NCBI GenBank assembly: GCA_043800705.1
Contig: JAZDMS010000023.1
Location: 65,584 to 129,583, forward strand
DNA: 64,000 nt
Reading direction: 5' to 3'
Source: Candidatus Altiarchaeota archaeon
GTDB lineage: Archaea; Altiarchaeota; Altiarchaeia; IMC4; SCGC-AAA252-I15
This document shows, piece by piece, positions 36,926 through 61,192 of this stretch (position 1 is its first letter; each line of letters begins with the position of its first letter). The notes beneath the pieces were generated by a model that saw only the letters and a list, made by a program, of their open reading frames with translations, was not told the DNA's origin and searched no databases. A program made the position numbers and the translations under genes.

Positions 36926-37078
36926 ACAGCATGCCGCTGTAGGTGCGAGACATCCGTCTCGCCTACATCGTCTTCGCTTCGCGAAGCCAATGTAGCTCAG
37001 ACCGGGACGCTCAAAACTGCTGCGCAGTTTTGGCGTATCAAGACGCGTTCGGCGTCTTGAGTAGATCACTCGGCTGAA
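36926..37078 (+). pseudogene. Fragmented copy of the tRNA-Phe leader and 5' half, interrupted by two hairpin inserts
   Basis: 36926-36942 = 37105-37121; 36991-37007 = 37117-37133; 37067-37078 = 37137-37148. Confidence 0.85.
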
Positions 37079-37111
37079 TATAACGGCGAAAAAACATAAA
37101 AAATACAGCAT

Positions 37112-37208
37112 GCCGCTGTAGCTCAGACCGGGAGAGCACTCGGCTGAAGAGGCCTGTATAAGGCACTCCGAAACCGAGGTGTCGCGTGTTCAAATCACGT
37201 CGGCGGCA
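37112..37208 (+). tRNA. tRNA-Phe(GAA) with 23-nt intron at 37/38 (37150-37172)
   Basis: Cloverleaf GCCGCTG/CGGCGGC, anticodon stem CTCGG/CCGAG, relaxed BHB motif. Confidence 0.93.
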
Positions 37209-37260
37209 AGAACCGTTTCATTTTTAGAGAAATTGTGGTTCTCATACCCCCGGGAAAACT

Positions 37261-38202
37261 ATGGCTGACGTTTTGATCAAAGACGGAGTTCTGCATAAGT
37301 TGTGGGTTACATCTGATGAGGTGCATGACTTCGAGCCGATAGTCAAGTATCATGTTAAGGATATTTTTGGTGTTGATTGCGAATACTTCCAAAAACAGAA
37401 ACTAAAGTCCCTTGCAGATAATCGTTCTATCCCGGATGGTTTCGTCATAGATTACAAGAATCAGATGTGGTACATAGTTGAATTAAAGCTACTTTGTGAT
37501 GATGCAGTAAAACGGATTCCGGGCCAGATTATAAGCTATAAAAACGCAGTAAAGAGCATAGGTACAAAGAAGCAGATATATGATTCCATCCGCAGTCAAA
37601 TTTCTAAACCTCCTGCATTCCTTTATGACCTAATTTTCGACAAGAACCCTTCAATTGTGATTATTATAAACAGTCTCGATGGAGAGCTTGGTGAACAATT
37701 CGAAGAAAATGTTAACGGCGCGGATAAAAACGCCAAAATACTTGTTTTCAAGACTTTTGCCCCTGAGTCTACTGATCCGAGAAAGATACACTGCCATGTA
37801 TTTGAACCTATGCACTCAACTAGTCCATTCAAAACAAAAAAGACAACTTCCACAGAACTAGCTTCAACGCCAGAATTAAAGCGTATGAAACGTGGTGAAA
37901 TTACGACACAACTAACATACAGAATGCCCATTCTTGAAACTCTTCTGGAAATGGGTGGAAGGGGTAAAACAAAAGAGGTTCTGGATAGTATCGGTGTTAA
38001 AATGAAGGGTATCCTAAAAGCGGTAGATTACACGAAACAGCCATCCGGCTTTGATATTCGCTGGAGAAACACAGCGGCTTGGGAAAGGCAACAGATGACC
38101 ACTGACGGATTATTAAAATCATCTAAGGAGTCAGGCCGTGGTTTCTGGGAGATTTCCGATACAGGTAGACGATATTACGACGAAAACAAACCTCACAAAT
38201 AA
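37261..38202 (+). CDS. PD-(D/E)xK nuclease-like domain plus Mrr N-terminal-like winged helix (putative restriction/defence protein)
   Basis: IPDG...IVELK; YRMPILETLLEMGG...RWRNTAAWER...GLL...RG.WEISD.G; AT-rich. Confidence 0.75.
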   Translation: MADVLIKDGVLHKLWVTSDEVHDFEPIVKYHVKDIFGVDCEYFQKQKLKSLADNRSIPDGFVIDYKNQMWYIVELKLLCDDAVKRIPGQIISYKNAVKSIGTKKQIYDSIRSQISKPPAFLYDLIFDKNPSIVIIINSLDGELGEQFEENVNGADKNAKILVFKTFAPESTDPRKIHCHVFEPMHSTSPFKTKKTTSTELASTPELKRMKRGEITTQLTYRMPILETLLEMGGRGKTKEVLDSIGVKMKGILKAVDYTKQPSGFDIRWRNTAAWERQQMTTDGLLKSSKESGRGFWEISDTGRRYYDENKPHK

Positions 38203-38332
38203 TCAGGTCTCGGTTTCGTAGTCACCTCAAGTCCTGTACTGTATGTGGCGCTTAAGTCCCTATAACAGTTTCGGGGGAATCAGGGGTAACTTAGACCTGA
38301 GGGGGCGGTAGCCTCCTGCGGTTCGGGTGGAG

Positions 38333-38348
38333 ATCACGTCGGCGGCAA
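38333..38348 (+). repeat. Direct repeat of the tRNA-Phe 3' end (att-like)
   Basis: ATCACGTCGGCGGCAA identical to 37194-37209. Confidence 0.85.
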
Positions 38349-38363
38349 CTATTCTTTTTTCAT

Positions 38364-39614
38364 TTATTTTTTCTTCCTGGGCGTGAACTTGATCTTTATC
38401 ATGTATTGGTTCGTCCTTCCTATCGCCGGCAGTTCGCCCGAGTCCGGTCTGTCTCCTTGGATCATGCTTTCGTCCGGGGCCGCTCTTCCTGTGGTAGGGG
38501 GCATGAGGTGGGGGAATCCTCCGAAGCCGGCCGTGACGGTTATGGGCCTGTCGTCCGGTATCTTTACGCGAACTATCCCCTTCTCTGTGGGGATGTCAAG
38601 GGTGTTTCCGTAGGCGTCGATGGCCGAAAAGTCGGCGCCGGTCGGCTCAAGCCGCTCCAATACCACGAAGTCTCCCTCGGTCCTGATGAGGGCCTGTCTG
38701 CTGGCTACGCCCTCTATGTCGTCGGGGACGGTCAGGTCGACTCCCCTGTAGAAGTCGACTCGTATCTCCCCCTCCCTGATGACAAGATGCTGCATGTTCC
38801 CGATCATGAAGTTCCCGTTTGGGTGTATTATCCGTTCGACTACTTCTTGCGGCAGGGGCTGCTGCAATAATTTTCCCGACGGGGTGCGTCTCTCTTCGAT
38901 GCCTGTCACGTGATGGGTTTGTGCGAGCGTCGGCCTCTTTTTCTGTTCGGGCTCGGCCGCCCTGACTCCCTGCCTCCTTTTGAATTGCAGACTGATGAAG
39001 TTCGGGTGGGCAAGGAGTGCGCCGATCCGTTCATTCGAATCCCCCTGCCTGTCTGCGAAACTGATGACCGATTCGCTCAGGTCTTCCCCGAGGACTGTCT
39101 GGAGCTTTTGGCTGTTGGTGGCTACGTCGTTGCGGCCGTTCTTCTGATACCTGCCAATGGCCAGGACTATTGTGACGTCGCTGTCGCCTATGCTGACTTT
39201 TTTGCCGTCTTTTTCGCAGTATCCGCGCTCGCCTGTCGGCTGCTTCTGGAGGGTGTCTATGCTCTGGCATACTCCGTCCCGGAAGACTATCACCTGGATG
39301 GGTTTGTTCGTCAATGCGTCTATGTCCAGTTGCTGGCCGAGGAGCGAGCATGCGAGGGAGTTCCTTGAGACATATTGGTCCCCTTCCCCGCAGTTTATCC
39401 CCACCGTCCCCGCCGGCAGCCTTCCGCACGTCAAGAGGCCTCCGTCCAGCAGGTGTTGGGCAATGTTCGGCGCCTGTTCGATCGGTTGCGTTCCTCCGTC
39501 TTGGTCCAGCTGTTTGCCTGTGATTGTGAGCCTGTGCGTTTCTTTTACGTACCTTCTCTCCTGCGGGCTGCCTTGGCCAGGATGCATGGATTCCATTGTA
39601 TTATTTACATGCAT
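38364..39614 (-). CDS. Hypothetical protein, possibly with a degenerate FHA-like domain
   Basis: 416-aa ORF; RGVDLTVPD..GVASRQALI weakly resembles FHA. Confidence 0.55.
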   Translation of the reverse strand: MHVNNTMESMHPGQGSPQERRYVKETHRLTITGKQLDQDGGTQPIEQAPNIAQHLLDGGLLTCGRLPAGTVGINCGEGDQYVSRNSLACSLLGQQLDIDALTNKPIQVIVFRDGVCQSIDTLQKQPTGERGYCEKDGKKVSIGDSDVTIVLAIGRYQKNGRNDVATNSQKLQTVLGEDLSESVISFADRQGDSNERIGALLAHPNFISLQFKRRQGVRAAEPEQKKRPTLAQTHHVTGIEERRTPSGKLLQQPLPQEVVERIIHPNGNFMIGNMQHLVIREGEIRVDFYRGVDLTVPDDIEGVASRQALIRTEGDFVVLERLEPTGADFSAIDAYGNTLDIPTEKGIVRVKIPDDRPITVTAGFGGFPHLMPPTTGRAAPDESMIQGDRPDSGELPAIGRTNQYMIKIKFTPRKKK

Positions 39615-39785
39615 TATGGGGAAAAAAGCTGTATGTCAAGTAGAGAAAATGGTGATTGAAGATGTCTCATATGTAATTTTCGTGCGTAGAGTGTTCTTTA
39701 TGTGGATATTTGAATAACAACACCCCATTGCTGACTCCTTTTTGCTTTTTATGACTTATTTCTAATAGTTTATTGCACCGATAGT

Positions 39786-40703
39786 ATGGGTAAAAAAAGG
39801 TTCAAAAAAGGCAAAATTGTAGTAAATAAAACCATTTCATGTGATGAGTCAACTGATGCGGGCTCAAAAATCCATGACTTAGTTTCAGTAGACGGTACTT
39901 CGGCTGCCGGCGGGAAAAAATCCTCGGGGGAAAAATCCGAAGACCTTGTCAGGATCATCACAGACATACAATCCGAAGAGGATTTAGGACCTGGCGTGAA
40001 GACATCCCTGGACTATTCGTCCGAAGATCAGATCACTTCTGTCGTCTCCGACATAGAAGAGGAGATCCCGCATGAGCCGCTGGCCGATGACATAAAGTGC
40101 GCCAGAAGCTGCGCGTTGGAGATCGGCGTAGTGGCCTTGACAGTCATAGCCATCCTTGCTGGCATCCTCATCCTCTGTGTGGTCTACATCTACCAGGAGT
40201 ATGGTCCTAAAGATTCGACATTCGGGCATGTCGTCAAAGGAGGGCCCGTTGCAGAAGCGGCCTCCTCCACCACTTCGTCTACTACGACAACGACGTCGTC
40301 GACGTCGATCACTTCGACCACGACCTCCACGTCATCCCCTCCCCCCGCCCCCGTCTGCAGGCCGCCTTATATGCGTCTGGGCCTCGGTTGCTGCCTTGAT
40401 TCCCAAGGCAACGGATTATGCGACACAGACGAGCATTCCACGACGTCTTCGACGGTCCTCGACTACGTCATATGCAGGCGGGATGCCGACTGCGGGGCTA
40501 CGAGGACGGAGTATATCTGCCGCATCGGAGACGTTTACCGTCTGACCTTCACCCACGTTTGCAGGAGGCCGGGGCTGACGTCCTCGGCCTGCGAGCAGGT
40601 CGTGATCGACGACCTCGTCGACAGTTGCGGGCCTGCCTATCAATGCGTTACGGGCAGGAACAGGTGTCAGCCCAGGTACACGAGCAACAACTTCATGGAC
40701 TAG
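39786..40703 (+). CDS. Membrane-anchored Thr/Ser-rich, Cys-rich surface protein
   Basis: TM helix, STTSSTTTT linker, C.PPY...G..CCLD...NG.CD motif. Confidence 0.75.
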   Translation: MGKKRFKKGKIVVNKTISCDESTDAGSKIHDLVSVDGTSAAGGKKSSGEKSEDLVRIITDIQSEEDLGPGVKTSLDYSSEDQITSVVSDIEEEIPHEPLADDIKCARSCALEIGVVALTVIAILAGILILCVVYIYQEYGPKDSTFGHVVKGGPVAEAASSTTSSTTTTTSSTSITSTTTSTSSPPPAPVCRPPYMRLGLGCCLDSQGNGLCDTDEHSTTSSTVLDYVICRRDADCGATRTEYICRIGDVYRLTFTHVCRRPGLTSSACEQVVIDDLVDSCGPAYQCVTGRNRCQPRYTSNNFMD

Positions 40704-41589
40704 GCTTTCTCGGCTGTCTGTAGGGGAGTCCTCTTATAAGTTTGCGCATTTTAGCAGCCGTCACCCACGTCTCCTTCCCGACTCTGATTTTAAGCTCTCC
40801 TGTGACTGTGCCGACTTCCACGCATGGGCAGCCGTGTTTCGCTGCTGTGGTGACTACAGTGTCAGTCTCCTTCTGTGGCACAGCCAAAAGGTATGTCCCC
40901 ATGTATCGTGTGGGGCTCGGGTACGGTATCGCCGTGATCTTGACCCCCTTTTGGCTCTTTATCAGCATCTCGGTGAGGTTTCCGAACCATCCTCCGCGAC
41001 TCGCGTCTTTGAGGGCGTGCATCTCGATCTTCTGCCCGTAGAGGTCGAACATAGTTGCGAATTTCACGTTCACCCTGTGGACGCGCTCCCCTGTGGTTCC
41101 CTCGACCACGTGGCCGACCATGAGTATCTTGTCCCCGTCCTGGCATCCGCAGTCGGGTATCGGTCTGCCGATGAGCCTGCCGACGACGAAGAACGATATG
41201 CACGGCTTGAGGTCGTTCTCAAGCTGCGTGTTCCCGCCGATTATCGGGACGCCGAGGCCCATGCTCTGGCGTTTGACCTCTTCGACCACCTCCTTCGCCT
41301 GCTCGAGGGAGTCCACCTGCATGGCGTTGAATGCGAAGAGCGGTCTTGCCCCCATCGCGACTATGTCCGCGCAGGTGTGTATGAGGCCCGTCTTCTGGCC
41401 TATGTTCAGCGGGTATGGTCCTTCCATGTTGTAGACGTAGTCGTCGACGATCGCCGCGTCGTCACCCTGCTGTATCCCGAAGCGTAGGCCTTTGACCTTC
41501 TCGTCCATGTGCCAGAAGGCTCGCCTTATCGCGGTCGTCTCAAGTATGTGTCCGAGGCTTCTTTCTATCTCTTCCTTCATCGTTGTCAC
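40693..41589 (-). CDS. AIR synthase-related (PurM/ThiL/SelD/HypE fold) protein
   Basis: GDDAA, DIVAMGARP, IIGGNT, KDASRGG. Confidence 0.85.
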   Translation of the reverse strand: MTTMKEEIERSLGHILETTAIRRAFWHMDEKVKGLRFGIQQGDDAAIVDDYVYNMEGPYPLNIGQKTGLIHTCADIVAMGARPLFAFNAMQVDSLEQAKEVVEEVKRQSMGLGVPIIGGNTQLENDLKPCISFFVVGRLIGRPIPDCGCQDGDKILMVGHVVEGTTGERVHRVNVKFATMFDLYGQKIEMHALKDASRGGWFGNLTEMLIKSQKGVKITAIPYPSPTRYMGTYLLAVPQKETDTVVTTAAKHGCPCVEVGTVTGELKIRVGKETWVTAAKMRKLIRGLPYRQPRKPSP

Positions 41590-41653
41590 CCGCTCATGTG
41601 GATCCGGATCATAAGTGTTTTCCTATTCCTATTATGCTATTTCCCCCTTAGTA

Positions 41654-43126
41654 TTATCCCAGCGCCTTCATCTGTTCGAACGTCAACTCCTCTATGTCGG
41701 TTTTGTCGTCCGTGAATATATCACCGCCTTCCTGGTTATATTCGACCGCATATTCGTTGAAGTTGTAAATTATCGGCTCCATGCGGGGGTTATTCGCCCT
41801 CGTCAGGCCTTCAGTGAGCTGTTGTTTGGTTTTTTTGCCCTTGCATGCGATGAGTATGTCGTTCCTTGACGAATTCACCAAGAAGACGCTTGGGAACGCG
41901 GTTTTCATGGTGTTTGCCACCGCATGCGACAGTTTCCTGTCATTTTTTATGTTCAGGACGTTCATCATCAGGATGCCGTCGTCGTTCAGGTGCCCGTAGG
42001 CATCCTTGAAGAATTCCGCGGATGACATGTGGGTCGGGATGTCTGCTCCGTTGAACGCGTCAACGTCTATCACGTCATATTTCCCCGAGCCTTTGAGGAA
42101 CTGCCGCCCGTCAGACACGAAGATGCGCAACCTGGGGCCTTCCGTCACGTTGAAGTATTCCTTTGCGACATCTACGACTGAGGGGTCGATCTCGACCGCG
42201 TCGACGTCCACGTCGTAGAATCCGAGGAGCTGGTTGACTGCGACCCCCCCCGCCATTCCTATGAAAAGAACCTTGTTGCCTCCGCTCATTGGCGGGCCAA
42301 GCAGGTAATTGTCGAAGTAGTAGCCTGTTAGGGGGCCGTTCTTGTTCTGATATGACTGTATGAGAAATAGGTCCCAGTTCATCCTCAGGATGCGGCTGTT
42401 TGGGGAGTCAACGACGGATATTATGTTGTATGCGGACTCGCCCCTGTATATGAGTCCCTCTGCTTGCAGATACGGCGGCTGATACAGGAAGCCGGGTAAC
42501 ATGAACATCGCCAAGAGCGCGGAATTCCTCTCATAGACTCCGATGCATCCTAAGGCGCAAAGAAGCAGGGCGTTGGAAAGCAGCGTCGCCCTGGTCCCGA
42601 GGTAAGGCAATAGGAGGAAGGCCGTGGCGAAGGTGCCTATTATGCTCCCAACTGTCGAGATAGCGAACACCTTTCCTGCGCTCCCGCCGACGGTCGAGAG
42701 ATTCCTAGCCTCGCGTTTTATCACCATCGGAGAGACCGTGGAGACCAGCGTCATCGGAGCCGCGAAGATCATCACCGAAGATATGAGCGGCCCGAATATA
42801 AGGCCCGCATACGTGCAGACCGCGACGATAGCATACCCCACGGTGGGCGTCAGGGACACTATTATGCCGGAGAGTATCAGGGCCTTATACGGCCTCTTCG
42901 GATCCTTTCGGTCGTCAGCCCATCTGCCGCCTATCCAGTACCCCAACGACATGGCCGCCATTATAACGCCGATAAGTGAGCCCCATACGTATATTCCCCC
43001 TCCGAAGCCGGGGGACAGGATCCTTGAGGCGCAAAGCTCAAGGCTCATCACGGAGGCCCCGGCCAGGAAGGCGCTCCCTAAGAGGAACGCCCGGGATCTT
43101 GGCTGATTCGACGTCTTTTTCCTCAT
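41654..43126 (-). CDS. Membrane domain fused to spermidine synthase-like methyltransferase
   Basis: MSLEL..SR.L.P.FG, ISTVGSI.GTF, IGMAGG, VEIDP, DGRQFL, YD.I.VDAF. Confidence 0.9.
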   Translation of the reverse strand: MRKKTSNQPRSRAFLLGSAFLAGASVMSLELCASRILSPGFGGGIYVWGSLIGVIMAAMSLGYWIGGRWADDRKDPKRPYKALILSGIIVSLTPTVGYAIVAVCTYAGLIFGPLISSVMIFAAPMTLVSTVSPMVIKREARNLSTVGGSAGKVFAISTVGSIIGTFATAFLLLPYLGTRATLLSNALLLCALGCIGVYERNSALLAMFMLPGFLYQPPYLQAEGLIYRGESAYNIISVVDSPNSRILRMNWDLFLIQSYQNKNGPLTGYYFDNYLLGPPMSGGNKVLFIGMAGGVAVNQLLGFYDVDVDAVEIDPSVVDVAKEYFNVTEGPRLRIFVSDGRQFLKGSGKYDVIDVDAFNGADIPTHMSSAEFFKDAYGHLNDDGILMMNVLNIKNDRKLSHAVANTMKTAFPSVFLVNSSRNDILIACKGKKTKQQLTEGLTRANNPRMEPIIYNFNEYAVEYNQEGGDIFTDDKTDIEELTFEQMKALG

Positions 43127-43328
43127 TTTAGTTGGCGGTCAGGTCGCCCATCAGTCATCATAAAGTCAGAGGTTGTTCGCATCATCACACCGCCGATAAC
43201 TACTAGGTGGACTTCAGATAATATAGTTAAAATCACTCGACCGATGAAGATGGGAGAAAAATGGCAGATTGTTATTCTTCGAGAAAAAGTTAAATACGGG
43301 GGCGTCTTTCAGCCCCCGCTTTATATGT

Positions 43329-44969: not shown

Positions 44970-45020
44970 ATCAAATTCACCTCAAATATAAATTTCTGGA
45001 ACAATTAATGGGTTTGCCTG

Positions 45021-45036
45021 TATATAAAGCTTTCGG
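45021..45036 (-). promoter_or_regulatory. BRE/TATA promoter of the thermosome gene
   Basis: Minus strand CCGAAAGCTTTATATA; SD-like GAGGTGA before the ATG. Confidence 0.75.
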
Positions 45037-45107
45037 AAACCCCCATACGGTCATATTTCCCCGAATACCGGCCATATCCTTATTAAGGTGATTTTTAAAG
45101 TAAGGTT

Positions 45108-46085: not shown

Positions 46086-46097
46086 TACGCAGGCGGT

Positions 46098-47006: not shown

Positions 47007-47042
47007 GACACCTAATTAATATCCGGGGTCCTATATATCCCC

Positions 47043-47684: not shown

Positions 47685-47714
47685 ATTTATTCTCCCTTTC
47701 TCATTCCTGTACTG

Positions 47715-48491: not shown

Positions 48492-48513
48492 ACAAAATAA
48501 TCGGACTGCCGCC

Positions 48514-49662: not shown

Positions 49663-49684
49663 CCCGGGATAAAATATATCCCCT

Positions 49685-51010: not shown

Positions 51011-51771
51011 CCTATGCCCCTCAGACAAGCGAGCGCCTTATCAAAGTGCCTGCCCACCTGGCTCGGCTTATGCGCATCCGAACCGAGGGTAATCCCTATG
51101 TCCAGTTCATGAGCTCTCCTGAGGACGTCCTCGGACGGATACATGTCGCCGGCCGGCTTGTCGAACCCTGAAGTGTTGACTTCGAGGATGAGGCCCTTCA
51201 TCCTTATGAGCTGAAGCGTCCGCTCAATGCCCGAGGCGAATGCCTCATTATCCCCCCTGAAGTATTTCCCGCCGCCGTTGAACTTCTTGATCAGGTCGAG
51301 GTGGGCCACGACGTCTACGGCATCCGACTTGACTAGTCCTTGGACGAGGCGGAAATATTCGCCAATACATCTGTCGATGTCCCCTCCGAATTGTCTCCTC
51401 AGCCCTTCGGCAAACACCTCGTCGGAGTAGTCGAAAACCCACCCGCCGATGAAGTGGACGGAGCCTATGACGTAATCCAGGCCCAAGCCCTTGAGGCTCT
51501 TCAACTCATCAGCATATCCGGGGATGTAGTCCACCTCGGTCCCGGCCAGAACGTTCGGGCCGCGGGCTGCCTTGAGCTCGGACAGGTATCCTGCAAGGGA
51601 CTCCCGTTTCATGGCACAATCCCCGACCGGGTCCTTGAATCCCTCGGGCAGCGGATAATGCTCCGAGAACCCGATGACGGAAATCCCCTTCGCCTTCGCG
51701 GCCTTGACATACTCCGACACCTCCCCCTCGGCATGCGGGCAATGTTTAGTGTGTACATGGGTGTCTATCAT
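50953..51771 (-). CDS. Histidinol-phosphatase, PHP family (HisJ/HisK)
   Basis: DTHVHT..C.HA, FSEH.P, GSVH, AHLD, EVNTSG, GSDAH. Confidence 0.92.
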   Translation of the reverse strand: MIDTHVHTKHCPHAEGEVSEYVKAAKAKGISVIGFSEHYPLPEGFKDPVGDCAMKRESLAGYLSELKAARGPNVLAGTEVDYIPGYADELKSLKGLGLDYVIGSVHFIGGWVFDYSDEVFAEGLRRQFGGDIDRCIGEYFRLVQGLVKSDAVDVVAHLDLIKKFNGGGKYFRGDNEAFASGIERTLQLIRMKGLILEVNTSGFDKPAGDMYPSEDVLRRAHELDIGITLGSDAHKPSQVGRHFDKALACLRGIGYDRLCFFRGRNPDSVALV

Positions 51772-52826
51772 CTCAAGACTTCCCTTAGCATCTTCAAGAA
51801 GTGCTTCGTATCCTTCACGGTCCCGATGGAGACCCTGACGCACCCCCCAAGGAGGGGATAATCGCTCCTGTCCCTCACCAACACTCCCTTCTTCCCGAGC
51901 CTGGCCGTGATGTCCCCGGCCGCGTCGCCGAACCTCACAATGATGAAGTTCGCCGACGTGGGATAGACCATGAATCCCATATTCTCCAGACCTGCTATCA
52001 TAAGCGGCCTCGACTCCTCCATCACCTGCCTCGCATACTTCTCCACAGGCCTGCGGTTCCTTATCGCGGACACTATCGCCGTCTTCGCTATCATGTTGAC
52101 GTCATACGGCCCCCTGACTTTCATGAGCTCGCGGATGTTCCTCTCGTCAGAGATGACGAAGCCAGCCCTCAAGGCAGCCAGGCCGAAAGCCTTCGAAAAT
52201 GTCCTGGTGATGACGAGGTTATCGTATATCCCGACGAGGTCGACGGCGGACTCCCTGGAGAACTCGAAATACGTCTCGTCGACATAGACCGGGACGTCCT
52301 TGGCCTTCTCGAGTATCCTGACTATGTCCCCCCTTGCTATGGGTGTCCCGGTGGGGTTGTTGGGGTTGCATAAAATCACCAAGGCGGTCTTCTCGCAGAT
52401 GGCGTCCAACACCCGCTCGGTAGGGAAACTCAGATCCTCGTTGTAAAGCACCTTCCTGATGTCGGCGCCCTCGACCTGCGCCGCCTGATAGAACATCGCG
52501 AAGCTCGGCGTCGGTATGACGACCTCGTCACCCTTCTCGACATAGGCCCTGACGATGATGTCTATCCCCTGGTCGGAGCCGTTGGTGACCATGACCTGTC
52601 CGGGCTTCACGCCGAAGTACCCTGCCGAGACATCGACGAGGTCCCCGTACTCGGGGTAGACATGCAGCCTGCCCTCCTTGACGAATTTGACGACGTCCTT
52701 GACGACGTTCGGGTGACAGCCGATAGTGCTCTCGTTGAAGTCGTACCTGTGCTTGAACTTCGCCCTCCCCTCGATGGGCGGGCAATACGGCTTCATCCCC
52801 GAAATCTGCTCCTTGGGCTTGATCAT
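51768..52826 (-). CDS. hisC: Histidinol-phosphate aminotransferase
   Basis: FNE, NGSD, CNPNNPTG, VDE.Y.EF, RTFSKAFGLA.LR. Confidence 0.95.
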   Translation of the reverse strand: MIKPKEQISGMKPYCPPIEGRAKFKHRYDFNESTIGCHPNVVKDVVKFVKEGRLHVYPEYGDLVDVSAGYFGVKPGQVMVTNGSDQGIDIIVRAYVEKGDEVVIPTPSFAMFYQAAQVEGADIRKVLYNEDLSFPTERVLDAICEKTALVILCNPNNPTGTPIARGDIVRILEKAKDVPVYVDETYFEFSRESAVDLVGIYDNLVITRTFSKAFGLAALRAGFVISDERNIRELMKVRGPYDVNMIAKTAIVSAIRNRRPVEKYARQVMEESRPLMIAGLENMGFMVYPTSANFIIVRFGDAAGDITARLGKKGVLVRDRSDYPLLGGCVRVSIGTVKDTKHFLKMLREVLR

Positions 52827-52909
52827 ACTTTCACCTGACTAAAATGAACGAAGGCTGAAATTAAAACCAAAAAATGCCGACTTATATCCCCACTACCTAA
52901 ATCTCCACC

Positions 52910-53818
52910 ATGGAGATAACCTTCCTCGGCACATCAGGCACAATCCCAACCGAAAAACGCGGACTATCCGCCGTCCACCTCAACTACATGGGGCAGCCGA
53001 TGCTTTTCGACTGCGGGGAGGGGACCCAGCGCCAGATGCGCCTCGCAGGACTAAACTTCATGAGCATCGACAACATATACCTCACCCACCTGCACGCAGA
53101 CCACTTCCTCGGCCTCGGCGGGATGCTGCAGAGCATGGACTTCCTCGAGCGAAAACCCCCCCTCACGATCCACGGCCCGCCGGGAACCAAGGAGACCATC
53201 GAAAAGCTCCTGACGCTCGGGACGTTCCAATTGGACTACCTCATCGTCAAGACGAACGAAGTCCAGGAAGGCCTCGTCCACAGGGGGGATAGATACTCGG
53301 TGACCTGCGCGAAGACCGCGCACACGAAATACAGCGTCGCATACTGCTTCACAGAAGACCCACACAGGAAATTCGACAAACCCAAGGCGCTCGCCCTCGG
53401 CGTACCCGAAAGCCGCCTGTTCTCGAAACTCCAAAACGGAGAATCCGTCGAAGTCAAAGGAAATACGATAACCCCCGACATGGTCCTCATGGACCCCATA
53501 CCCGGCAGAAAGGTCGTCTACACCGGCGACACACGGCCCTGCAGGGCGGTAGAGGAACTGGCGAAGGGGGCGGACATACTAATACACGAATGCATGTTCA
53601 GCCACGAAGACCTCGAAGACGTCAAAGACATGGCACACAGCACCACCAAACAGGCCGCAGAGATAGCGAAGAACGCGGGCGTCAAGAGGCTCTACCTCAC
53701 CCACATCAGCCAAAGGTACACAGAACCTGAGAAACTCCAGGCCGAAGCCAGGGAAGTCTTCCCCGAATCCTACATAGCCGAAGACTTCATGAAAGTGCGG
53801 GTGGAGAAGCATTGGTAG
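52910..53818 (+). CDS. rnz: Ribonuclease Z
   Basis: FLGTSG..PT..R, FDCGEGTQ, THLHADH, YTGDT.P, HE, HST, LTHISQRY. Confidence 0.96.
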   Translation: MEITFLGTSGTIPTEKRGLSAVHLNYMGQPMLFDCGEGTQRQMRLAGLNFMSIDNIYLTHLHADHFLGLGGMLQSMDFLERKPPLTIHGPPGTKETIEKLLTLGTFQLDYLIVKTNEVQEGLVHRGDRYSVTCAKTAHTKYSVAYCFTEDPHRKFDKPKALALGVPESRLFSKLQNGESVEVKGNTITPDMVLMDPIPGRKVVYTGDTRPCRAVEELAKGADILIHECMFSHEDLEDVKDMAHSTTKQAAEIAKNAGVKRLYLTHISQRYTEPEKLQAEAREVFPESYIAEDFMKVRVEKHW

Positions 53819-53878
53819 ACTTCAGAGTCATCGAGGCCACGGGCCGAAGATGGCTCCTTCGCGAACCTTATAAGGTTC

Positions 53879-53918
53879 AGCCGAAGACTTCATTAAAGTC
53901 AAAATAGACAAACACTGG
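53879..53918 (+). repeat. Displaced copy of the rnz 3' end
   Basis: AGCCGAAGACTTCAT identical at 53776-53790 and 53879-53893; AEDFIKVKIDKHW versus AEDFMKVRVEKHW. Confidence 0.85.
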
Positions 53919-53998
53919 TTATGGGGGCAGGAACCCATCAGGCCAAGAGAAACCGCATCGGGCCTTTTTATTCCTCGCCATACCTAATTATAAAAACC

Positions 53999-54071
53999 GG
54001 GACCATGGGGTAGCTTGGTATCCTTCTAGCTTTGGGAGCTAGTGACCTGCGTTCAAATCGCAGTGGTCCCA
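53999..54071 (+). tRNA. tRNA-Pro(TGG), no intron
   Basis: GGGACCA/TGGTCCC acceptor, CTAGC-TTTGGGA-GCTAG, GTTCAAATC. Confidence 0.95.
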
Positions 54072-54109
54072 TAATTTAGCTTTTTTATCCCCTATTCTAA
54101 TAATTTCTC

Positions 54110-54793
54110 ATGGACAGCCGGCTTTCCACTGGGATCAAGGGCTTGGACGAACTTATTGAAGGCGGCCTGAAGCCGAAGAGCATCAACCTGGTCATGGGCG
54201 AATCCGGCAGCGGCAAATCGACTTTCGCCGTCAACTTCCTCAAAGCCGGAGCCGACAAGGGCGAAGCCGGCCTCTACGTCTCCGTTGAGGAACAGAAGGA
54301 CAAGTTCTACGAGAACATGAGCCGCTTCGGAATAGACCTGGCAAAAATGGAGGCGGAGAAAACATTTGTTTTCCACAAGGCTTCGATTCCGGAGGTAAGG
54401 AACTTTCTCGACCAGGGGATGGTCAGCTTCGAACAATACTTCAAAACACACAACCTCAAGCGGGTCGTCATCGACAGCATGACCGCCCTCATGCTGGCAT
54501 ACAGCGCCGAGACGTCTCAGAGAAACTCACTCCTCCTGCTTTTCGAACTCCTATCAAAGTGGGAGGTAACGGTCCTCGTCACGAGCGAAGTCGAAGGAGA
54601 CGAGGCCCGATTTGGCCTCCAGTACCTGGTCGACACTGTATTCAGGCTATACTACCGCAAGGTAGGCCAGGAGCGGGTCAGGACCCTCGAAGTCATGAAG
54701 ATGAGGGGCACAGACCACAGCAAGCAGGAAATCGTCTACCGCATAGGGAAAGGCGGAATAATCCTATACCCCACGGAGAAAATACTCGTCTGA
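54110..54793 (+). CDS. Single-domain KaiC/RAD55-like ATPase
   Basis: STGI.GLD....GG, GESGSGKS, S.EE, RVVIDS, R.LEV.KMRGT.H. Confidence 0.92.
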   Translation: MDSRLSTGIKGLDELIEGGLKPKSINLVMGESGSGKSTFAVNFLKAGADKGEAGLYVSVEEQKDKFYENMSRFGIDLAKMEAEKTFVFHKASIPEVRNFLDQGMVSFEQYFKTHNLKRVVIDSMTALMLAYSAETSQRNSLLLLFELLSKWEVTVLVTSEVEGDEARFGLQYLVDTVFRLYYRKVGQERVRTLEVMKMRGTDHSKQEIVYRIGKGGIILYPTEKILV

Positions 54794-54832
54794 GGGAAAA
54801 AATAATCGGAATGTGCATTTTTATTATTATGA

Positions 54833-55045
54833 TTGTCGATAGATACCCCGGCCGGGCCGATTCCTTTAAGTCAACCTAAAATCGCACAAAATGCGGGAGC
54901 GGGAAAGATAATCGTCACCCCTGAAGGCAACCAACCGGACCTCAAAGCCGACGCATTTGCACCCCGGCATGTGACCGAAAATAACATACAAGCCCTATTG
55001 GCTCTCGTCCGCCAGCTTGAAGGCCCGCAGAGACACACCGTTTGA
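54833..55045 (+). CDS. Possible small hypothetical protein
   Basis: ORF fills the gap; non-ATG start. Confidence 0.3.
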   Translation: MSIDTPAGPIPLSQPKIAQNAGAGKIIVTPEGNQPDLKADAFAPRHVTENNIQALLALVRQLEGPQRHTV

Positions 55046-55052
55046 TATGGGA

Positions 55053-55700
55053 TTATTTTAGAATCGTCGTGACGTCCTGTATCACGTCCGTCTTTGTTAT
55101 GACTGTCAGGATGTCGTCCTTCTTCAGTATCGTGTTGTCGTCGGCTATGATAACCTCCCCTTTCCTGTAGACGACGCCAATCAATGCGCCGAACGGGAGA
55201 CCGACGTCCTTCACCTTCCTGTTGTCCAATCTCTCGTTGGTGAGTTTGATCTCGACGACTTCGGCGTTCCCGCCCGCGATGCTTATCATGCTTCTGCCCT
55301 TGTCCTTCGTCAGGGCGTTTTTTATCTGGCTGACCGCCGCGGAGACGATGCTTATAGCCGCAGTGATCTCGAGGCCTATGTAGAGGTCCTTCTTGTCAGG
55401 CTCGTTCACTCTCGCAACGATCTTCGCCACCTTGAACCTCTTAAGGATTTGGCAGATCGTCAAATTGGTGTTGTCGTCGGCGGTCAGGACCGCGACGGCG
55501 TCAGCCCGCTCGACGCCGGCATCCTTCAGCATCTCAGTGCTCGACCCATCCCCGTGGATGACTATTGCGTCGATGGATTCCGCGAGGAACTTGCTCCTTT
55601 CATCGTCCTTCTCGATGATGACGAGTTCATGGCCTTCGCTTATCAGGTGGTTCACGAGGGATTTGCCGATATTGCCACAGCCGATGACGATAACGTACAT
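55053..55700 (-). CDS. trkA: TrkA family potassium uptake regulatory protein
   Basis: IGCGNIG, GDG....L..AG, T.DD..N, RCK-C domain. Confidence 0.92.
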   Translation of the reverse strand: MYVIVIGCGNIGKSLVNHLISEGHELVIIEKDDERSKFLAESIDAIVIHGDGSSTEMLKDAGVERADAVAVLTADDNTNLTICQILKRFKVAKIVARVNEPDKKDLYIGLEITAAISIVSAAVSQIKNALTKDKGRSMISIAGGNAEVVEIKLTNERLDNRKVKDVGLPFGALIGVVYRKGEVIIADDNTILKKDDILTVITKTDVIQDVTTILK

Positions 55701-55776
55701 TTTTTTAACAGTTTAGAGTATAGCCGCGGCAGCTATAAATACCGCTTATAACCGCGGAAAAACATATCATACCTCG

Positions 55777-56625
55777 ATGAAGACGTCGGAGATACTGGTA
55801 GACGCCATCGGTTACGTGCGGAGATTCTGCGGCGAAATATTCGTCATAAAAATCGGCGGCGAAGCCCTCCTGGACAAGGACGTCGTCGACTCCGTCGCAC
55901 AGGACCTCATACTCCTGAACGCGCTCAACATCAAGACCGTAGTCGTCCACGGGGGCGGCGTCGAGATATCCCAAGCCATGGAAAAGTTCGGCAAGAAGCC
56001 GACATTCGTCCGCGGCCTCAGGGTCACTGACCAGGAGACGATGGACATCGTCGAGATGGTGATGACCGGGAAGGTCAAGCAGGAACTGACGTCGCGGATA
56101 CAGAAACACGGCGGACAGGCTGTCGGGCTTTCCGGCAAATACGGCAAGCTTTTCGAAGCCGTGAAAAAGAAAGGAAAAGTAGACCTCGGCCTCGTGGGAG
56201 AGGTCAAGAAGGTGAACCCGAAGGTCGTCATGACTCAGCTAGATGGGGGATACATACCCGTAATTTCGCCGATAGGATTCGCACCAGACGGGAGCAGCCT
56301 CAACATCAACGCAGACACCGCCGCATCGGAGCTGGCGATAGCCCTAGTGGCGAGCAAGCTCATAGTCCTAACCAACGTCGACGGAGTATTGGACAAGAAT
56401 AAGAGCCTCATTAAGCGCCTCACCGCGGCCGATGCCAAAAAACTCATAGGAAACGGAATCATCTCCGAAGGCATGATACCAAAGGTCGAGTCCTGCGTCA
56501 AGGCACTGAAAGGCGGTATCGCAAGGACCCACATAGTGAAGGCATCCACCCACGCAGTCCTTGAGGAGATACTGACGACGACAGGCACAGGGACGATGAT
56601 CACCCTAAAAAAAGCCGCAGACTGA
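55777..56625 (+). CDS. argB: Acetylglutamate kinase
   Basis: VIKIGG, VVVHGGG, GLRVTD, NINADT.A, LTNVDG, GMIPK, GTGT. Confidence 0.96.
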   Translation: MKTSEILVDAIGYVRRFCGEIFVIKIGGEALLDKDVVDSVAQDLILLNALNIKTVVVHGGGVEISQAMEKFGKKPTFVRGLRVTDQETMDIVEMVMTGKVKQELTSRIQKHGGQAVGLSGKYGKLFEAVKKKGKVDLGLVGEVKKVNPKVVMTQLDGGYIPVISPIGFAPDGSSLNINADTAASELAIALVASKLIVLTNVDGVLDKNKSLIKRLTAADAKKLIGNGIISEGMIPKVESCVKALKGGIARTHIVKASTHAVLEEILTTTGTGTMITLKKAAD

Positions 56626-56627
56626 CA

Positions 56628-56885
56628 ATGGAATTCAAACCATACGTCATCGAACTCGAGAACGCCAACCTAGTCCTACTCAAAGCGAAAAACGGATACG
56701 TCATGTGCGGCCTACTCAACATCGAAACTGCGGAGAGGCTCGGGCAGGCGGCAGCCATCGTCACAGCAGTCAAGAGCGCCGAAGACGCATTGAAGGCGAA
56801 AATAAAATCTGCAACGACCGCGGCCATGAAACTCGGAGTCAAAGAAGGGATGAGCGGGGAAGAAGCCATTAAAAAGATGTCCTGA
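56628..56885 (+). CDS. YunC/DUF1805 family protein
   Basis: GYVMCG.LN, AA.V..V, A..LGV..GM.G.EA. Confidence 0.85.
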   Translation: MEFKPYVIELENANLVLLKAKNGYVMCGLLNIETAERLGQAAAIVTAVKSAEDALKAKIKSATTAAMKLGVKEGMSGEEAIKKMS

Positions 56886-56886
56886 C

Positions 56887-57789
56887 ATGGAACTAAGAAA
56901 GTTTTTAACGAGCGATGTCGTAACGATCGGGTCAAAGGCGACTCTGCTCGAAGTCGCCACATTGATGACCAGAAAAAACATCAGCTCAATCATCGTGGCA
57001 GACGAAGGCGTAGTCTCCGGGATAATCACAGAACGGGACTTCCTACACCTTGTCAAGGACGGCAAGAACCAGACAGAGATGATAGCAAAGGACCTAATGA
57101 GTTCTCCAGTCATCACAGCTGACATAAAAATAACCGTCGAGGAAGCCGCGACTTTAATGCACGACAAAGGCATCCGGCAACTGCCAATAACCGAGGACGG
57201 CACACTGGCTGGGATAATAACGGAGACCGACATAGCGAACGCGATAAGGACCGTCCAACATGACGTCGAGATCGCCCTAGAGGAAACGATAGTCGAAACC
57301 CCGATGACCCACAACCTCGAGTTCGGAAAAACATATCTCTACCTGGAGCCTAAACCCGGCAATAGCATAAGCGCATTCGTTGACCTGGTAAAGCACGGAA
57401 CTGCAGGCCTCCTGATAACCAGACGGGATCCCGCACTTATCGCAGGCGAATGGGGCATCGACAAGATTCCAATGCTCTGGCTCACCGACACCAGCCCCCC
57501 ATGCCACCACGCAGACCCGCACAACGTACAGGGGATCTCGATCCTTGTCAGCAACTACCTCTCCCAGGCGTGCAAAACGGTGCTGATGATGGACGGGATA
57601 TCCTATCTCATCACCCAAAACAGATTCGAGACCGTCCTAAACCTGATCCAAAACGTACACGACAAGGCGGTAAGCTCCAAGTCCATATTCATCCTCTCGC
57701 TCAATCCGGAAACCCTGACCAAGCAGGAACTGGAACTGATAAAGCAGGAGACCGACGAGACGGTCCGTCGGCTAGGACCCTCCCTATAA
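56887..57789 (+). CDS. CBS-pair plus DUF835 domain protein
   Basis: GIITERD and GIITETD CBS motifs; GLLITR..P, LWLT, DGI.YL...N.F. Confidence 0.85.
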   Translation: MELRKFLTSDVVTIGSKATLLEVATLMTRKNISSIIVADEGVVSGIITERDFLHLVKDGKNQTEMIAKDLMSSPVITADIKITVEEAATLMHDKGIRQLPITEDGTLAGIITETDIANAIRTVQHDVEIALEETIVETPMTHNLEFGKTYLYLEPKPGNSISAFVDLVKHGTAGLLITRRDPALIAGEWGIDKIPMLWLTDTSPPCHHADPHNVQGISILVSNYLSQACKTVLMMDGISYLITQNRFETVLNLIQNVHDKAVSSKSIFILSLNPETLTKQELELIKQETDETVRRLGPSL

Positions 57790-57955
57790 AAATCGCACAT
57801 CTAAAAAATCGGCTGTATCCAAGCGGCCCCACGACTTGCACGGAGCATCACAGCCGGGACTCAACTTCGTCCGCCTCAGCAGCGGGCCACCGGCGGGCAC
57901 TTCTCGACCCCGCCCCCGCTTCTTTTAGGGGGAAGGTCAGAATTAAGAAGGCTTT

Positions 57956-58006
57956 TAGTTTTCAGTTTCCGGCTCTCTAGACCGAAAACCGTAAACTGAA
58001 AACTGG
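57956..58006. repeat. Inverted 7-nt-period repeat
   Basis: AGTTTTCAGTTT (57957-68) pairs with AAACTGAAAACT (57993-58004); units ACCGAAA ACCGTAA ACTGAAA. Confidence 0.65.
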
Positions 58007-58010
58007 GTGT

Positions 58011-58096
58011 TTTGGGCCGGGAGCGGAATCGCCGAAAACTGATTCACAGTTTTGGCGCGCTGGCTCCCTTCGGAGGCCGTCGTTGAATCCGCGTCA
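58011..58096 (-). repeat. Displaced copy of the tRNA-His 3' end with a 53-nt hairpin insert (58030-58082)
   Basis: TTTGGGCCGGGAGCGGAAT and TTGAATCCGCGTCA are contiguous at 58773-58805 but split here. Confidence 0.9.
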
Positions 58097-61185: not shown

Positions 61186-61192
61186 TTCAACC

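Follow-up and report, generated by a model that had tools for sequence, protein, structure and literature searches.

A double-hairpin insert of 51-57 nt, termed R1, occurs throughout one archaeal order and appears to be a tiny mobile or recombination element of a kind not described before. Its stems covary in the manner of DNA palindromes, and in tRNA D- and T-loops it is confined to spare tRNA pieces, no instance lying in a complete tRNA (0/40). The pieces themselves form polar direct repeats around most tRNA genes of the genome studied. R1 is tentatively interpreted here as a non-autonomous, lineage-wide palindromic mini-insert that acts at the DNA level, resembles MITEs and REPINs and colonizes redundant hairpin loops, a reading that is given slightly less than even weight. 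tRNA genes are classic landing sites of mobile DNA, and those of archaea are famously fragmented.

Two copies of R1 are present in the window, the 64,000-nucleotide stretch of Candidatus Altiarchaeota archaeon DNA that was analysed. They and their surroundings comprise the following features:

36926-36942, + strand: tRNA-Phe mini-fragment 1, a 7-nt leader (acagcat) and tRNA positions 1-10
36943-36985, + strand: insert A, a 43-nt double hairpin unrelated to R1, second loop TTCG
36986-37007, + strand: tRNA-Phe fragment 2, positions 1-21, with 2 mismatches (positions 4-5), ending at the last D-loop base
37008-37063, + strand: R1 module copy 1, hairpins H1 (37008-37035) and H2 (37036-37063), at D-loop 21/22, 68.8 bits
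37064-37079, + strand: tRNA-Phe piece 3, positions 22-37, with 2 mismatches, ending in the anticodon loop
37080-37111, + strand: A/T-rich 25-nt spacer and the 7-nt leader of intact tRNA-Phe
37112-37208, + strand: intact tRNA-Phe(GAA) with a 23-nt canonical intron
37209-38348, + strand: low-GC island of 1.1 kb with a 313-aa ORF containing an Mrr_N domain
58011-58029, - strand: tRNA-His 3' piece, running from position 59 in the T-loop through the discriminator and 4 bases into the trailer
58030-58082, + strand: R1 module copy 2, hairpins H1 (58030-58057) and H2 (58058-58082), at T-loop 58/59, 50.0 bits
58083-58096, - strand: tRNA-His piece, variable region, 5' strand of the T-stem and T-loop to position 58
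58094-58666, - strand: 190-aa hydrophobic orphan ORF (ORF190) in the low-GC stretch from intact tRNA-His to its fragment
58777-58872, - strand: intact tRNA-His(GUG) with a canonical BHB intron

The original prediction had described a 28-nt hairpin shared by 37008-37035 and 58030-58057, and the pair was recovered there with identity at 23 of 28 positions. Also as described, a second hairpin with a TTCG-containing loop follows each 28-mer, and the hosts are pieces of two different tRNAs. The resulting inserts measure 56 nt (37008-37063) and 53 nt (58030-58082) and lie in the D-loop of a 5' copy of tRNA-Phe and the T-loop of a 3' copy of tRNA-His, respectively. In the tRNA-Phe piece the insert at 37008 had been listed correctly, while the unrelated double hairpin at 36943-36985 had been overlooked; folded as 36942-36993, this insert A has a z-score of -4.1, and a homologue precedes tRNA-Phe in a sister genome (G001). 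For the R1 modules, single-stranded DNA folding gave the two-hairpin structure as the minimum-energy fold of both strands of both copies, with z-scores by strand of -7.6/-7.4 (Phe) and -3.6/-3.2 (His). When the pattern AAAACTG-N5-CAGTTTTGGCG was searched with at most 3 mismatches, only these two sites matched, each on both strands (4 matches observed versus 0.05 expected from shuffles), and a looser regular expression applied to the whole 2.0-Mb assembly yielded no third copy of the 28-nt hairpin.

The tRNA-Phe fragments (36926-37079, + strand) end 25 nt plus the 7-nt leader upstream of the intact gene, and the first of them (36926-36942) is an exact 17-nt direct repeat of 37105-37121. The A/T-rich stretch 37080-37111 might have a promoter role. 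Downstream of the gene, the final 16 nt of the low-GC island (38333-38348) directly repeat the 3' end of tRNA-Phe from within the T-loop onward, and its last ~60 nt are a multi-copy repeat. The tRNA-His pieces (58011-58096, - strand) lie 680 nt downstream of their intact gene and cover positions ~44-58 and 59-73(+4); 58011-58029 repeats the end of the intact gene exactly over 19 nt, and 58083-58096 is an exact 14-nt repeat. A TGA within the latter serves as the stop codon of the adjoining ORF190, which may not be a real gene and has no relatives among 5.8 billion clusters.

The shared 28-nt hairpin is the conserved half of the module, whose layout is [CGC-T-CAAAAC..loop..GTTTTG-GCG][CGC-CAAnn..loop..nnTTG-A-GCG], with one extrahelical base kept in each hairpin. 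Inverted repeats make up both its outer ends (CGCTCAA/TTGAGCG) and its centre (TTGGCG|CGCCAA), so that the two strands look alike, and the covariance model matches both strands of this two-fold pseudo-symmetric module at nearly every locus. A covariance-model scan, which had been proposed together with the original prediction, placed R1 in 33 of 49 genomes of the order, where it is neither limited to the window's two copies nor distributed as plain terminators. Four loci were found in the present genome, three of them in partial copies of tRNA-Phe, tRNA-His and tRNA-Val(UAC) within 765 nt of the intact gene; in some relatives the matches number 14-55 (both strands counted). Across 65 distinct aligned rows, 97.9% of stem cells are standard Watson-Crick pairs and double changes occur in 21 of the 22 pairs, with only ~9 G-U cells in 1384; shuffled and slid controls score far lower. 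Watson-Crick stems with G-U pairs nearly absent are the profile of a DNA palindrome and not of an RNA helix.

Insertion is precise. Among 39 instances examined, 15 interrupt a partial copy of a tRNA for which an uninterrupted twin exists at a distance of 46-608 nt, and their joined flanks (24 nt) recur in that twin in direct orientation with at most 2 mismatches (at most 1 in 14 of the 15); hence there is neither target-site duplication nor deletion. The original view of a tiny non-autonomous, tRNA-tied repeat that is no ordinary intron is supported. The other 24 of the 39 instances have no uninterrupted twin within 1.5 kb, and many of them lie in other hairpins, long intervening sequences, an IS-like repeat or arrays. 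Within tRNA pieces the sites are D-loop 21/22 and T-loop 58/59-59/60. Elsewhere, R1 is found in the H1 loop of another R1 (L076), in the loop of a CAGCCTT..AAGGCTGG hairpin (C22, C37, L064, L077) and in intervening sequences of 190-290 nt at position 37/38 of tRNA-Trp, tRNA-Ser and tRNA-Arg (L051, L052, L063, L072, L076). In one genome (G026), an R1 copy beside a Y1 match lies within an IS-like repeat present in 3 copies, ~90 nt from its end, and hairpin units also form tandem arrays. Removal of the module in silico through the D/T-loop junction never restored a complete tRNA (0/40); the sole full tRNA among these 40 instances came from L052, where the module sits in the long 37/38 intervening sequence.

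The conserved CAAAAC hairpin lies on the side remote from the intact gene in 14 of 15 instances (9/10 loci and the His locus of the window), the exceptions being tRNA-His of G002 (L071) and the nested C22 copy. Such a bias fits a role in the event that makes the fragments better than later random colonization. The best model orientation, in a module that matches both strands, is sense in Phe and Met fragments and antisense in His (including copy 2 of the window) and Gly; overall, 5' fragments carry it in the sense and most 3' fragments in the antisense direction. No polymorphism between filled and empty sites within one species was seen in the genomes compared.

Fragments of two tRNAs had been noticed correctly, whereas the genome-wide extent of fragmentation and the existence of several insert families had escaped attention. 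An exact direct self-repeat of at least 14 nt within 1.2 kb accompanies 18 of the 32 tRNA genes (35/2000 for random 90-nt segments), and inverted self-repeats under the same test accompany none (0/32). These repeats are strictly polar: upstream, 15/16 are 5' pieces; downstream, 22/22 are 3' pieces, 12 of which begin 16-17 nt before the tRNA 3' end. D- and T-loops are where the breaks fall. R1 is missing from most tRNA fragments of this genome and is only one of several insert families that they abut. Since every fragment here that bears a D- or T-loop has an insert at or near it, no empty fragment loop is seen. In a second family, opposite the tRNA 3' segment stands its own inverted copy of 10-11 nt, which is perfectly complementary and does not reproduce the G-U-pairing 5' strand of the tRNA; by hand count, its 11-nt arms flank 4-9 residual bases around an extruded hairpin. 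Another family in this genome (AAAAAGC..GCTTTTT) looks terminator-like.

Fragment flanks are identical to the resident tRNA (33/33 for His) and the modules have diverged, which, judged from sequence, suggests recent formation or gene conversion. Fragment and insert arrangements at tRNA-Phe differ among the sister genomes G000, G001 and G003, and G002 and G004 have no tRNA-Phe fragments. Tandem units of fragment plus module, separated by 6-45-nt spacers, occur in G001 (3.5 units) and at L056 (2 units). An order of tRNA, ORF, and 3' fragment plus module was found three times, with unrelated ORFs (58094-58666 of the window, L011/L057 and L055).

According to the mini-insert interpretation, R1 would enter the single-stranded loop of an existing hairpin precisely, without duplicating or losing target sequence, and would persist only where the host hairpin is dispensable. 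In this genome, D- and T-arms in partial copies of tRNA genes would serve as the dispensable hairpins. A separate, genome-wide and strictly polar process would have produced these copies, giving most tRNA genes 5' pieces, from the start to the D-loop, on their upstream side and 3' pieces, from the T-loop to the end, on their downstream side, perhaps as att-type duplications from very small integrating units, which they resemble. Mobility of R1 is suggested by nested copies, identical copies at several loci, and presence or absence between sister species; a structure-specific enzyme would presumably act in trans, and the two copies in the window are probably old, inactive relics. In favour of this interpretation are the R1 copies outside tRNA pieces, which show independence from these, and the tRNA fragments formed without R1. 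Against it stand the orientation bias, the absence of a matching enzyme gene, of a recurrent neighbour family and of empty loops, the identity of the fragment flanks to the resident tRNA beside diverged modules, and the absence of filled-versus-empty polymorphism within one species.

Concerning the enzyme, the original prediction had looked to REP-like systems. REP/BIME sequences, REPINs with their RAYT (Y1 HUH) transposases and IS200/IS605 palindromes are short and imperfect, have an extrahelical base and form inverted doublets. They are non-coding and non-autonomous and insert without target duplication; REP/REPIN sequences with RAYT reach tens to hundreds of intergenic copies per genome, and the single-copy Y1 gene is flanked by the repeats. 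R1 resembles them as an imperfect palindrome doublet in inverted orientation, with an extrahelical base, without coding capacity, autonomy or target duplication, and with arrays in G026. However, the link to Y1 was not borne out. No Y1/HUH transposase, TnpB or reverse transcriptase was found in this 87.6%-complete genome, and no correlation emerges across the order, where Y1 genes occur in 17 of 49 genomes and R1 in 12/17 Y1-positive versus 21/32 Y1-negative genomes. Nor is Y1 flanked by the hairpin: a module lies within 1.5 kb of only one of the 10 Y1 loci, with another gene between. R1 further differs from REP/REPIN in having just 4 loci here, in going into loops of other hairpins, tRNA D/T arms above all, and in its archaeal hosts. 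Miniature IS200/IS605 elements likewise lack target duplication, but the R1 hairpins extend to the very ends instead of being subterminal. No parent IS with TnpA or TnpB and matching ends was found in this genome; in G026 it is the module near the end of the IS-like repeat that lies close to a Y1 match. Among 214 ORFs neighbouring modules at 32 loci, no recurrent protein family was detected, only synteny clusters, and no recombinase gene is linked to a module. The only tyrosine recombinase found is encoded on another contig, C17, and is XerA/integron-integrase-like.

The main rival, possible if somewhat unlikely, regards R1 as the recombination site itself, an idea that the original prediction had raised as the recognition site of a cassette recombinase: folded single-stranded or cruciform DNA with extrahelical bases, located in the T- or D-arm copy and used by a tyrosine recombinase, either a XerA-like one of the host or one from an unbinned element. 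This enzyme would bring very small units or cassettes into tRNA D/T loops and regenerate the tRNA end, and fragment plus module would be an attR-type product. Functionally, such a system would be similar to integron attC or the folded attP of CTX phage. The hairpin orientation (14/15), the three tRNA-ORF-fragment orders, the tandem arrays in G001 and at L056 and the flanks identical to the resident tRNA all argue for it, as do spacers of 6-45 nt that are hard to derive from the decay of a kb-sized element. The arms of the second insert family match the 11-nt arms of dif sites, and the sole tyrosine recombinase found is of the XerA/integron-integrase type. It is weakened by the 24/39 instances without a twin, by the absence of R1 from most tRNA fragments here and of a recombinase gene linked to any module, and by the orphan nature of the ORFs, ORF190 included. 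Moreover, a classical duplex core site cannot accommodate 53 nt inserted in its 7-nt overlap region, and the reading would therefore depend on an as yet unproven pathway via folded DNA.

Integron attC sites and the folded CTX-phage attP(+) are imperfect palindromes with conserved paired ends, a variable middle and extrahelical bases that mark the fold; attC lies at the 3' end of small promoter-less ORF units arrayed beside a fixed site, with IntI adjacent to attI. R1 shares the conserved paired ends, variable middle and extrahelical bases, its predicted fold is compatible with such a site, and three ORF plus R1 site units resemble attC arrays. In contrast to attC, there is no IntI, attI or Pc platform, RYYYAAC/GTTRRRY boxes are absent from R1, the fixed site would be a tRNA loop, and most R1 units have no ORF. 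The att repeats of archaeal viruses and integrative plasmids with SSV- and pNOB8-type integrases likewise consist of 5'/3' tRNA direct repeats beside a reconstituted gene, as does the Caldiarchaeum tRNA-Thr model of Sugahara et al. (2012, PMC3293823), whose proposed recombination of an insert-carrying attP with an insert-free attB also favours the recombination-site reading. In both cases tRNA-end direct repeats bound inserted DNA, one att copy may hold extra sequence, and repeats accumulate at tRNA genes. The present repeats differ in that no integrase, whole or partitioned, lies between or beside them, the stretches between repeats spanning just 6-680 nt (up to 1140 nt of bounded DNA), often as ~100-nt tandem units; 18/32 tRNA genes are affected; and what is added is a conserved symmetric double hairpin, carried by the dead copy, rather than an intron in the live one.

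A bolder and unlikely extension proposes a hitherto unrecognized class of miniature, gene-less, self-healing insertion units in Altiarchaeota-type archaea that would enter tRNA D-/T-loops and regenerate the tRNA end, with folded palindromes bearing extrahelical bases (R1 and its sister families) as substrates of a host housekeeping recombinase such as XerA. If true, nearly every tRNA gene would be accumulating an array of recombination footprints with an occasional gene cassette.

Inserts at the RNA level, whether non-canonical tRNA introns, their relics or structured expansions of functional tRNA-like RNAs, are quite improbable. Intron transposition, which has reportedly been proposed for Thermoproteales along with non-canonical D-/T-loop introns, would be their origin. 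The sites 21/22, 58/59 and 59/60 coincide with reported positions of non-canonical archaeal introns, modules also reside in long 37/38 intervening sequences of apparently intact tRNA-Trp, tRNA-Ser and tRNA-Arg, insertion into loops only is what selection on an RNA fold would permit, and the symmetry of the module lets each strand adopt the same fold. Against this stand the truncated hosts, the near absence of G-U pairs, the opposite best model orientations in 5' and most 3' fragments for a module that matches both strands, the absence of reverse transcriptase, and the lack of any matching Rfam family at E values up to 1. In agreement with the original prediction, no BHB exists at the tRNA-restoring boundaries of any of the three inserts, while the control, the intron of intact tRNA-His, scores the full H4/h5/h'4. 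A BHB-dependent archaeal tRNA intron is thus rejected, there being no BHB and no complete host tRNA (0/40). R1 is like non-canonical tRNA introns (cf. an Asgard census preprint, 10.64898/2026.10.13.758758) in its equal tRNA positions and in the similarity of inserts in different tRNAs, but differs from them in lacking a BHB and in having truncated hosts, both best model orientations and DNA-type covariation. Plain regulatory hairpins (terminators or attenuators) or a chance likeness of two GC-rich palindromes are hardly credible: both hairpins are stable, intergenic and near highly expressed genes, and the AAAAAGC..GCTTTTT family is terminator-like, but no T-run follows either module in the window, the modules occupy exact loop positions within tRNA-derived sequence, and the excess of pattern matches, conservation in 33 genomes and covariation refute this reading.

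R1 thus represents an order-wide, sequence-defined insert that occupies the D-/T-loop positions of non-canonical introns and behaves like DNA. The arrays of polar pieces at more than half of the tRNA genes here provide a testable system for the gain of inserts, fragments and small cassettes. Annotators should note that a tRNA half in a genome of this kind is usually debris of recombination rather than part of a split gene. Intact tRNA genes may also be misread, ARAGORN calling the intact tRNA-His(GUG) as Asp or ???.

The two 28-nt hairpins of the original prediction, at 37008-37035 and 58030-58057, are located exactly as described and are identical at 23 of 28 positions. A search with their pattern, allowing at most three mismatches, matched only these two sites (shuffle expectation 0.05), and no third copy of the pattern was found in the 2.0-Mb assembly (43 contigs, 87.6% complete), in which the window lies on contig C14 and carries archaeal 16S and 23S rRNA genes. 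A second hairpin directly follows each 28-mer, as had also been reported, yielding modules of 56 and 53 nt (hereafter R1, a name also used for the covariance model of the family). The finding is real, and it proved more general than initially supposed. The relevant features of the window are as follows.

36926-36942: 17-nt exact copy of the tRNA-Phe leader and positions 1-10, the outermost upstream piece
36943-36985: insert A, a 43-nt double hairpin unrelated to R1
36986-37007: copy of tRNA-Phe positions 1-21
37008-37063: R1 module copy 1 (56 nt), in the tRNA-Phe 5' copy
37064-37079: copy of tRNA-Phe positions 22-37, just after module copy 1
37112-37208: intact tRNA-Phe with a canonical intron
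58011-58096: tRNA-His copy, consisting of positions ~44-58, the module, positions 59-73 and 4 trailer bases
58030-58082: R1 module copy 2 (53 nt), in the tRNA-His 3' copy
58777-58872, minus strand: intact tRNA-His

The modules interrupt the D-loop of the tRNA-Phe copy at 21/22 and the T-loop of the tRNA-His copy at 58/59, the latter copy being identical to its gene at 33 of 33 positions. An A/T-rich spacer of 25 nt separates the copy of positions 22-37 from intact tRNA-Phe, and downstream of tRNA-His lies a 680-nt low-GC stretch with an orphan 190-codon ORF (ORF190), for which neither relatives nor a Pfam family were found. Within the genus, the tRNA-Phe fragment is absent from two relatives (G002 and G004), a third (G001) has a 7-nt duplication flanking a relative of insert A, and a fourth (G003) has a 60-bp duplication flanking a 43-nt insert; the underlying process thus recurs on short time scales. 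Behind tRNA-Phe, a 1.1-kb low-GC island (37209-38348, GC 0.42) encodes a 313-aa ORF with an Mrr_N domain; at its boundary, 16 nt of the tRNA 3' end, beginning in the T-loop, are repeated directly. This island looks like a small integrated unit, and the ORFs around tRNA-Phe matched no NCBIfam family.

The module has the layout [CGC-T-CAAAAC..loop..GTTTTG-GCG][CGC-CAAnn..loop..nnTTG-A-GCG], in which each outer end recurs in inverted form at the other, the centre likewise consists of an inverted pair (TTGGCG and CGCCAA), and one extrahelical base per hairpin is the sole constant imperfection. Owing to this design, reverse-complementing the module leaves its form unchanged, and nearly all loci are matched by the model on both strands. 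Among 65 distinct aligned rows, in an alignment that was fitted to the model and includes both strands, standard pairs occupy 97.9% of 1384 cells, both-sided changes occur in 21 of 22 pairs, and G-U accounts for only about 9 cells; shuffled and slid controls showed far lower pairing. Pairing that is almost entirely Watson-Crick, with so little wobble, is the profile of a DNA palindrome, not of an RNA helix. As single-stranded DNA, both window copies adopt the two-hairpin fold on either strand (z of -7.6 and -7.4 for 37008-37063; -3.6 and -3.2 for 58030-58082).

Comparison of the fragments by BLAST with 40 relatives revealed similar structures, including a tandem array of the tRNA-His 3' piece (3.5 copies) beside the intact gene in G001, each copy with a T-loop double hairpin of the same kind; an almost complete additional tRNA-Gly that carries one module in its T-loop and another in its D-loop and lies 20 nt from the intact gene (G015); and a tRNA-Met 5' half with a module in its D-loop, 26 nt upstream of the intact gene (G027). 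The covariance model, built from 14 copies, bore out the expectation of further copies, with matches in 33 of the 49 genomes searched in the order (1 to 42 per genome, both strands counted). Four R1 loci were detected in the source genome itself: the two in the window, one on contig C22 between a tRNA-Val(UAC) 5' piece and its intact gene, and a weak match on contig C37 that has no tRNA nearby. When 185,579 species genomes were scanned for the exact pattern, 38 stretches were returned, 9 of which possess the second hairpin and are all archaeal; the other 29 lack it and were treated as chance. Two such scans of viral contigs gave 2 chance matches without a second hairpin and then 0. In metagenomes, real modules were recognized by eye in 2 of 80 fetched loci (L208 and L235), the remainder being mostly a conserved bacterial coding motif. 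The literature searched, open-access papers without their supplements, contained no description of the R1 module or, for Altiarchaeota, of polar arrays of tRNA-end repeats, which is not proof of absence.

Insertion sites were analyzed in 39 instances from 32 loci, after four duplicate loci were dropped (L010, L011, L040 and L044, the same DNA as L050, L057, L051 and L052). In 15 of the 39, the joined flanks (24 nt) have an uninterrupted twin in direct orientation, 46-608 nt away, with at most one mismatch in 14 cases and two in the other; the twin is an intact tRNA each time. This recurrence of the joined flanks indicates insertion without duplication or deletion of target bases. The CAAAAC hairpin is distal to the intact gene in 14 of these 15 instances (9 of 10 loci), the exception being tRNA-His of G002, and the tRNA-His locus of the window agrees. 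Of the other 24 instances, five lie within intervening sequences of 190-290 nt that interrupt tRNA-Trp, Ser and Arg genes at position 37/38, several occupy the loop of another conserved hairpin (CAGCCTT..AAGGCTGG), and one is nested in the first-hairpin loop of a second R1 copy; others are located at contig edges or in settings for which no explanation was found. In silico removal of the module never restored a complete tRNA by joining a D- or T-loop (0 of 40); the sole hit was a long 37/38 intervening sequence. In the complete 1,390,915-nt contig of G026 (loci L094-L163), R1-like hairpin units form intergenic tandem arrays of 2-8 (e.g., 459403-459574), and one module lies within a three-copy IS-like repeat; ARAGORN recognizes only 23 tRNA genes in this genome, in which 16,992 bases are masked.

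Partial tRNA copies are widespread in the source genome. A direct exact repeat of at least 14 nt of the gene itself was found within 1.2 kb of 18 of 32 ARAGORN tRNA genes and an inverted one for none of 32, compared with 35 and 3, respectively, of 2000 random 90-nt segments. Repeats of at least 13 nt numbered 38. Among the 16 upstream, 15 are 5' pieces that end in the D-arm or D-loop; all 22 downstream are 3' pieces reaching 0-12 nt beyond the gene end, and 12 of them start 16-17 nt before the 3' end, in the T-loop. The sixteenth upstream repeat, like one of those downstream, represents a T-arm 13-mer common to the neighbouring tRNA-Ser and tRNA-Ala genes, which match each other. R1 is thus only one of several insert families that adjoin these pieces. 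The others are a terminator-like hairpin bordered by the tRNA 3' segment in inverted copy (10-11 nt), a hairpin of the GGGTTGATAAGGGC type, the CAGCCTT hairpin at D-loops, and a ~60-nt repeat present at least 8 times, whose copy behind tRNA-Phe ends the 1.1-kb island. For tRNA-Gly(UCC) and tRNA-Val(GAC), the inverted copy in the terminator-like family agrees with the perfect complement and not with the 5' strand of the tRNA itself, which pairs by wobble. R1 is often a secondary, nested insertion.

Taken together, these properties suggest that R1 is a palindromic, non-autonomous mini-insert whose targets are exposed hairpin loops. This preferred reading is based on the DNA-type covariation, strand symmetry, precise insertion free of duplication, nesting in hairpin loops, and absence from complete tRNAs. 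The insert would persist only where the entered hairpin is dispensable, and partial tRNA copies, which themselves resemble duplications of the att type such as very small integrating units would leave, would supply such loops. The system is probably akin to palindromic mini-elements and att-site debris, as a new form. The main rival explanation is that the module itself could be a folded recombination site that creates the tRNA duplication, to which the orientation bias of the modules, the very short spacers, the tandem units, three tRNA-ORF-site arrangements, and the 11-nt inverted arms of a sister insert family all lend support. In the nearest published model, proposed by Sugahara et al. 2012 (PMC3293823), the insert-bearing attP of a mobile element recombines with an uninterrupted tRNA attB, leaving a tRNA fragment.

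An intron origin of the inserts is unlikely. The original prediction that they form no bulge-helix-bulge splicing motif held: a script that found the full motif for the canonical tRNA-His intron, used as control, detected nothing usable in the three inserts. It is similarly unlikely that they are terminators, and no Rfam family matched them at E-values up to 1. A retrovirus-like primer-binding site, suggested by 3' pieces starting near position 58, was rejected, because leader or trailer bases belong to the pieces and the search for a reverse transcriptase was negative.

The proposed association with RAYT/HUH transposases, with Y1 genes flanked by the same hairpin, did not survive: in a search with filters off around 10 Y1 loci, a module was near only one and did not flank the gene. 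Y1 genes occur in 17 of the 49 genomes, and cross-tabulation showed R1 to be independent of them (present in 12 of 17 Y1-positive vs 21 of 32 Y1-negative genomes). R1 is not tied to a HUH transposase. In the source genome (87.6% complete), Y1 transposase, TnpB and reverse transcriptase were not found; one tyrosine recombinase, closest to archaeal XerA but below the curated cut-off, is encoded on another contig, at C17:175-993. Clustering of the 214 ORFs that reach 80 aa in 32 module loci produced synteny clusters only; neither a recurrent protein family nor a linked nuclease was found beside the modules.

Several further observations concern the surrounding sequences. Degenerate intergenic arrays of a 7-nt unit (GAAAACY or its complement) are present directly outside the tRNA-His fragment (57948-58006) and elsewhere in the source genome (C1:200-480, C1:22190-22590, C1:23030-23125 and C28:2295-2445). 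They share the word AAAACTG with the stem of the first R1 hairpin; a role as element ends or iterons was rejected, as they occur in unrelated intergenic regions and no link was found. The ~60-nt repeat is GC-rich and vaguely tRNA-like, with copies at window 38268-38332 and at C42:30036-30105, C33:12270, C34:9403, C24:30404 and C39:8107-8544 (3 copies), several of which adjoin 3'-end repeats of tRNA-Phe, Met and Thr at their T-loop breakpoint. Behind tRNA-Arg(GCG), Gly(GCC), Gly(UCC) and Val(GAC), units at C5:61400-61700, C23:4160-4250, C30:145-230 and C35:49810-49990 share one layout: a TCACGA motif, a 10-11-nt inverted tRNA 3' copy, a hairpin resembling a terminator (AAAAAGC..GCTTTTT), and finally the tRNA 3' end in direct orientation. 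Their arms are 11 nt, as are those of dif sites, and enclose 4-9 residual bases when the hairpin is not counted.

The long 37/38 intervening sequences in tRNA genes of relatives (L051:1339-1631, L052:1410-1680 and L076:1316-1684) each begin with a CCTTTCTTTTT..AAAAAGAAAGG hairpin, the same as that found after tRNA 3' ends, and might represent either long introns or split halves lying close together. In the 16S-23S spacer of the window, a tRNA-Ala(UGC) with an 89-nt intron (61022-61186) was predicted by ARAGORN only, not by Rfam at the gathering threshold. At L055:1580-2300 (minus strand), a 5' piece split by a TTTCTTTCTTAGGAAGAAAGAAA hairpin, a tRNA gene, a helical-repeat ORF of ~130 codons, and a 3' piece with R1 follow one another, so both kinds of flank occur at one gene. 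Finally, a 'tRNA-Stop(tta)' called by ARAGORN with a 99-nt intron (C24:1772-2250) is preceded by two of its own 5' pieces in tandem. A 47-nt double hairpin, with TTCG or TTCA as second loop, interrupts each piece near position 16, which is the architecture of the window's inserts in a different sequence.
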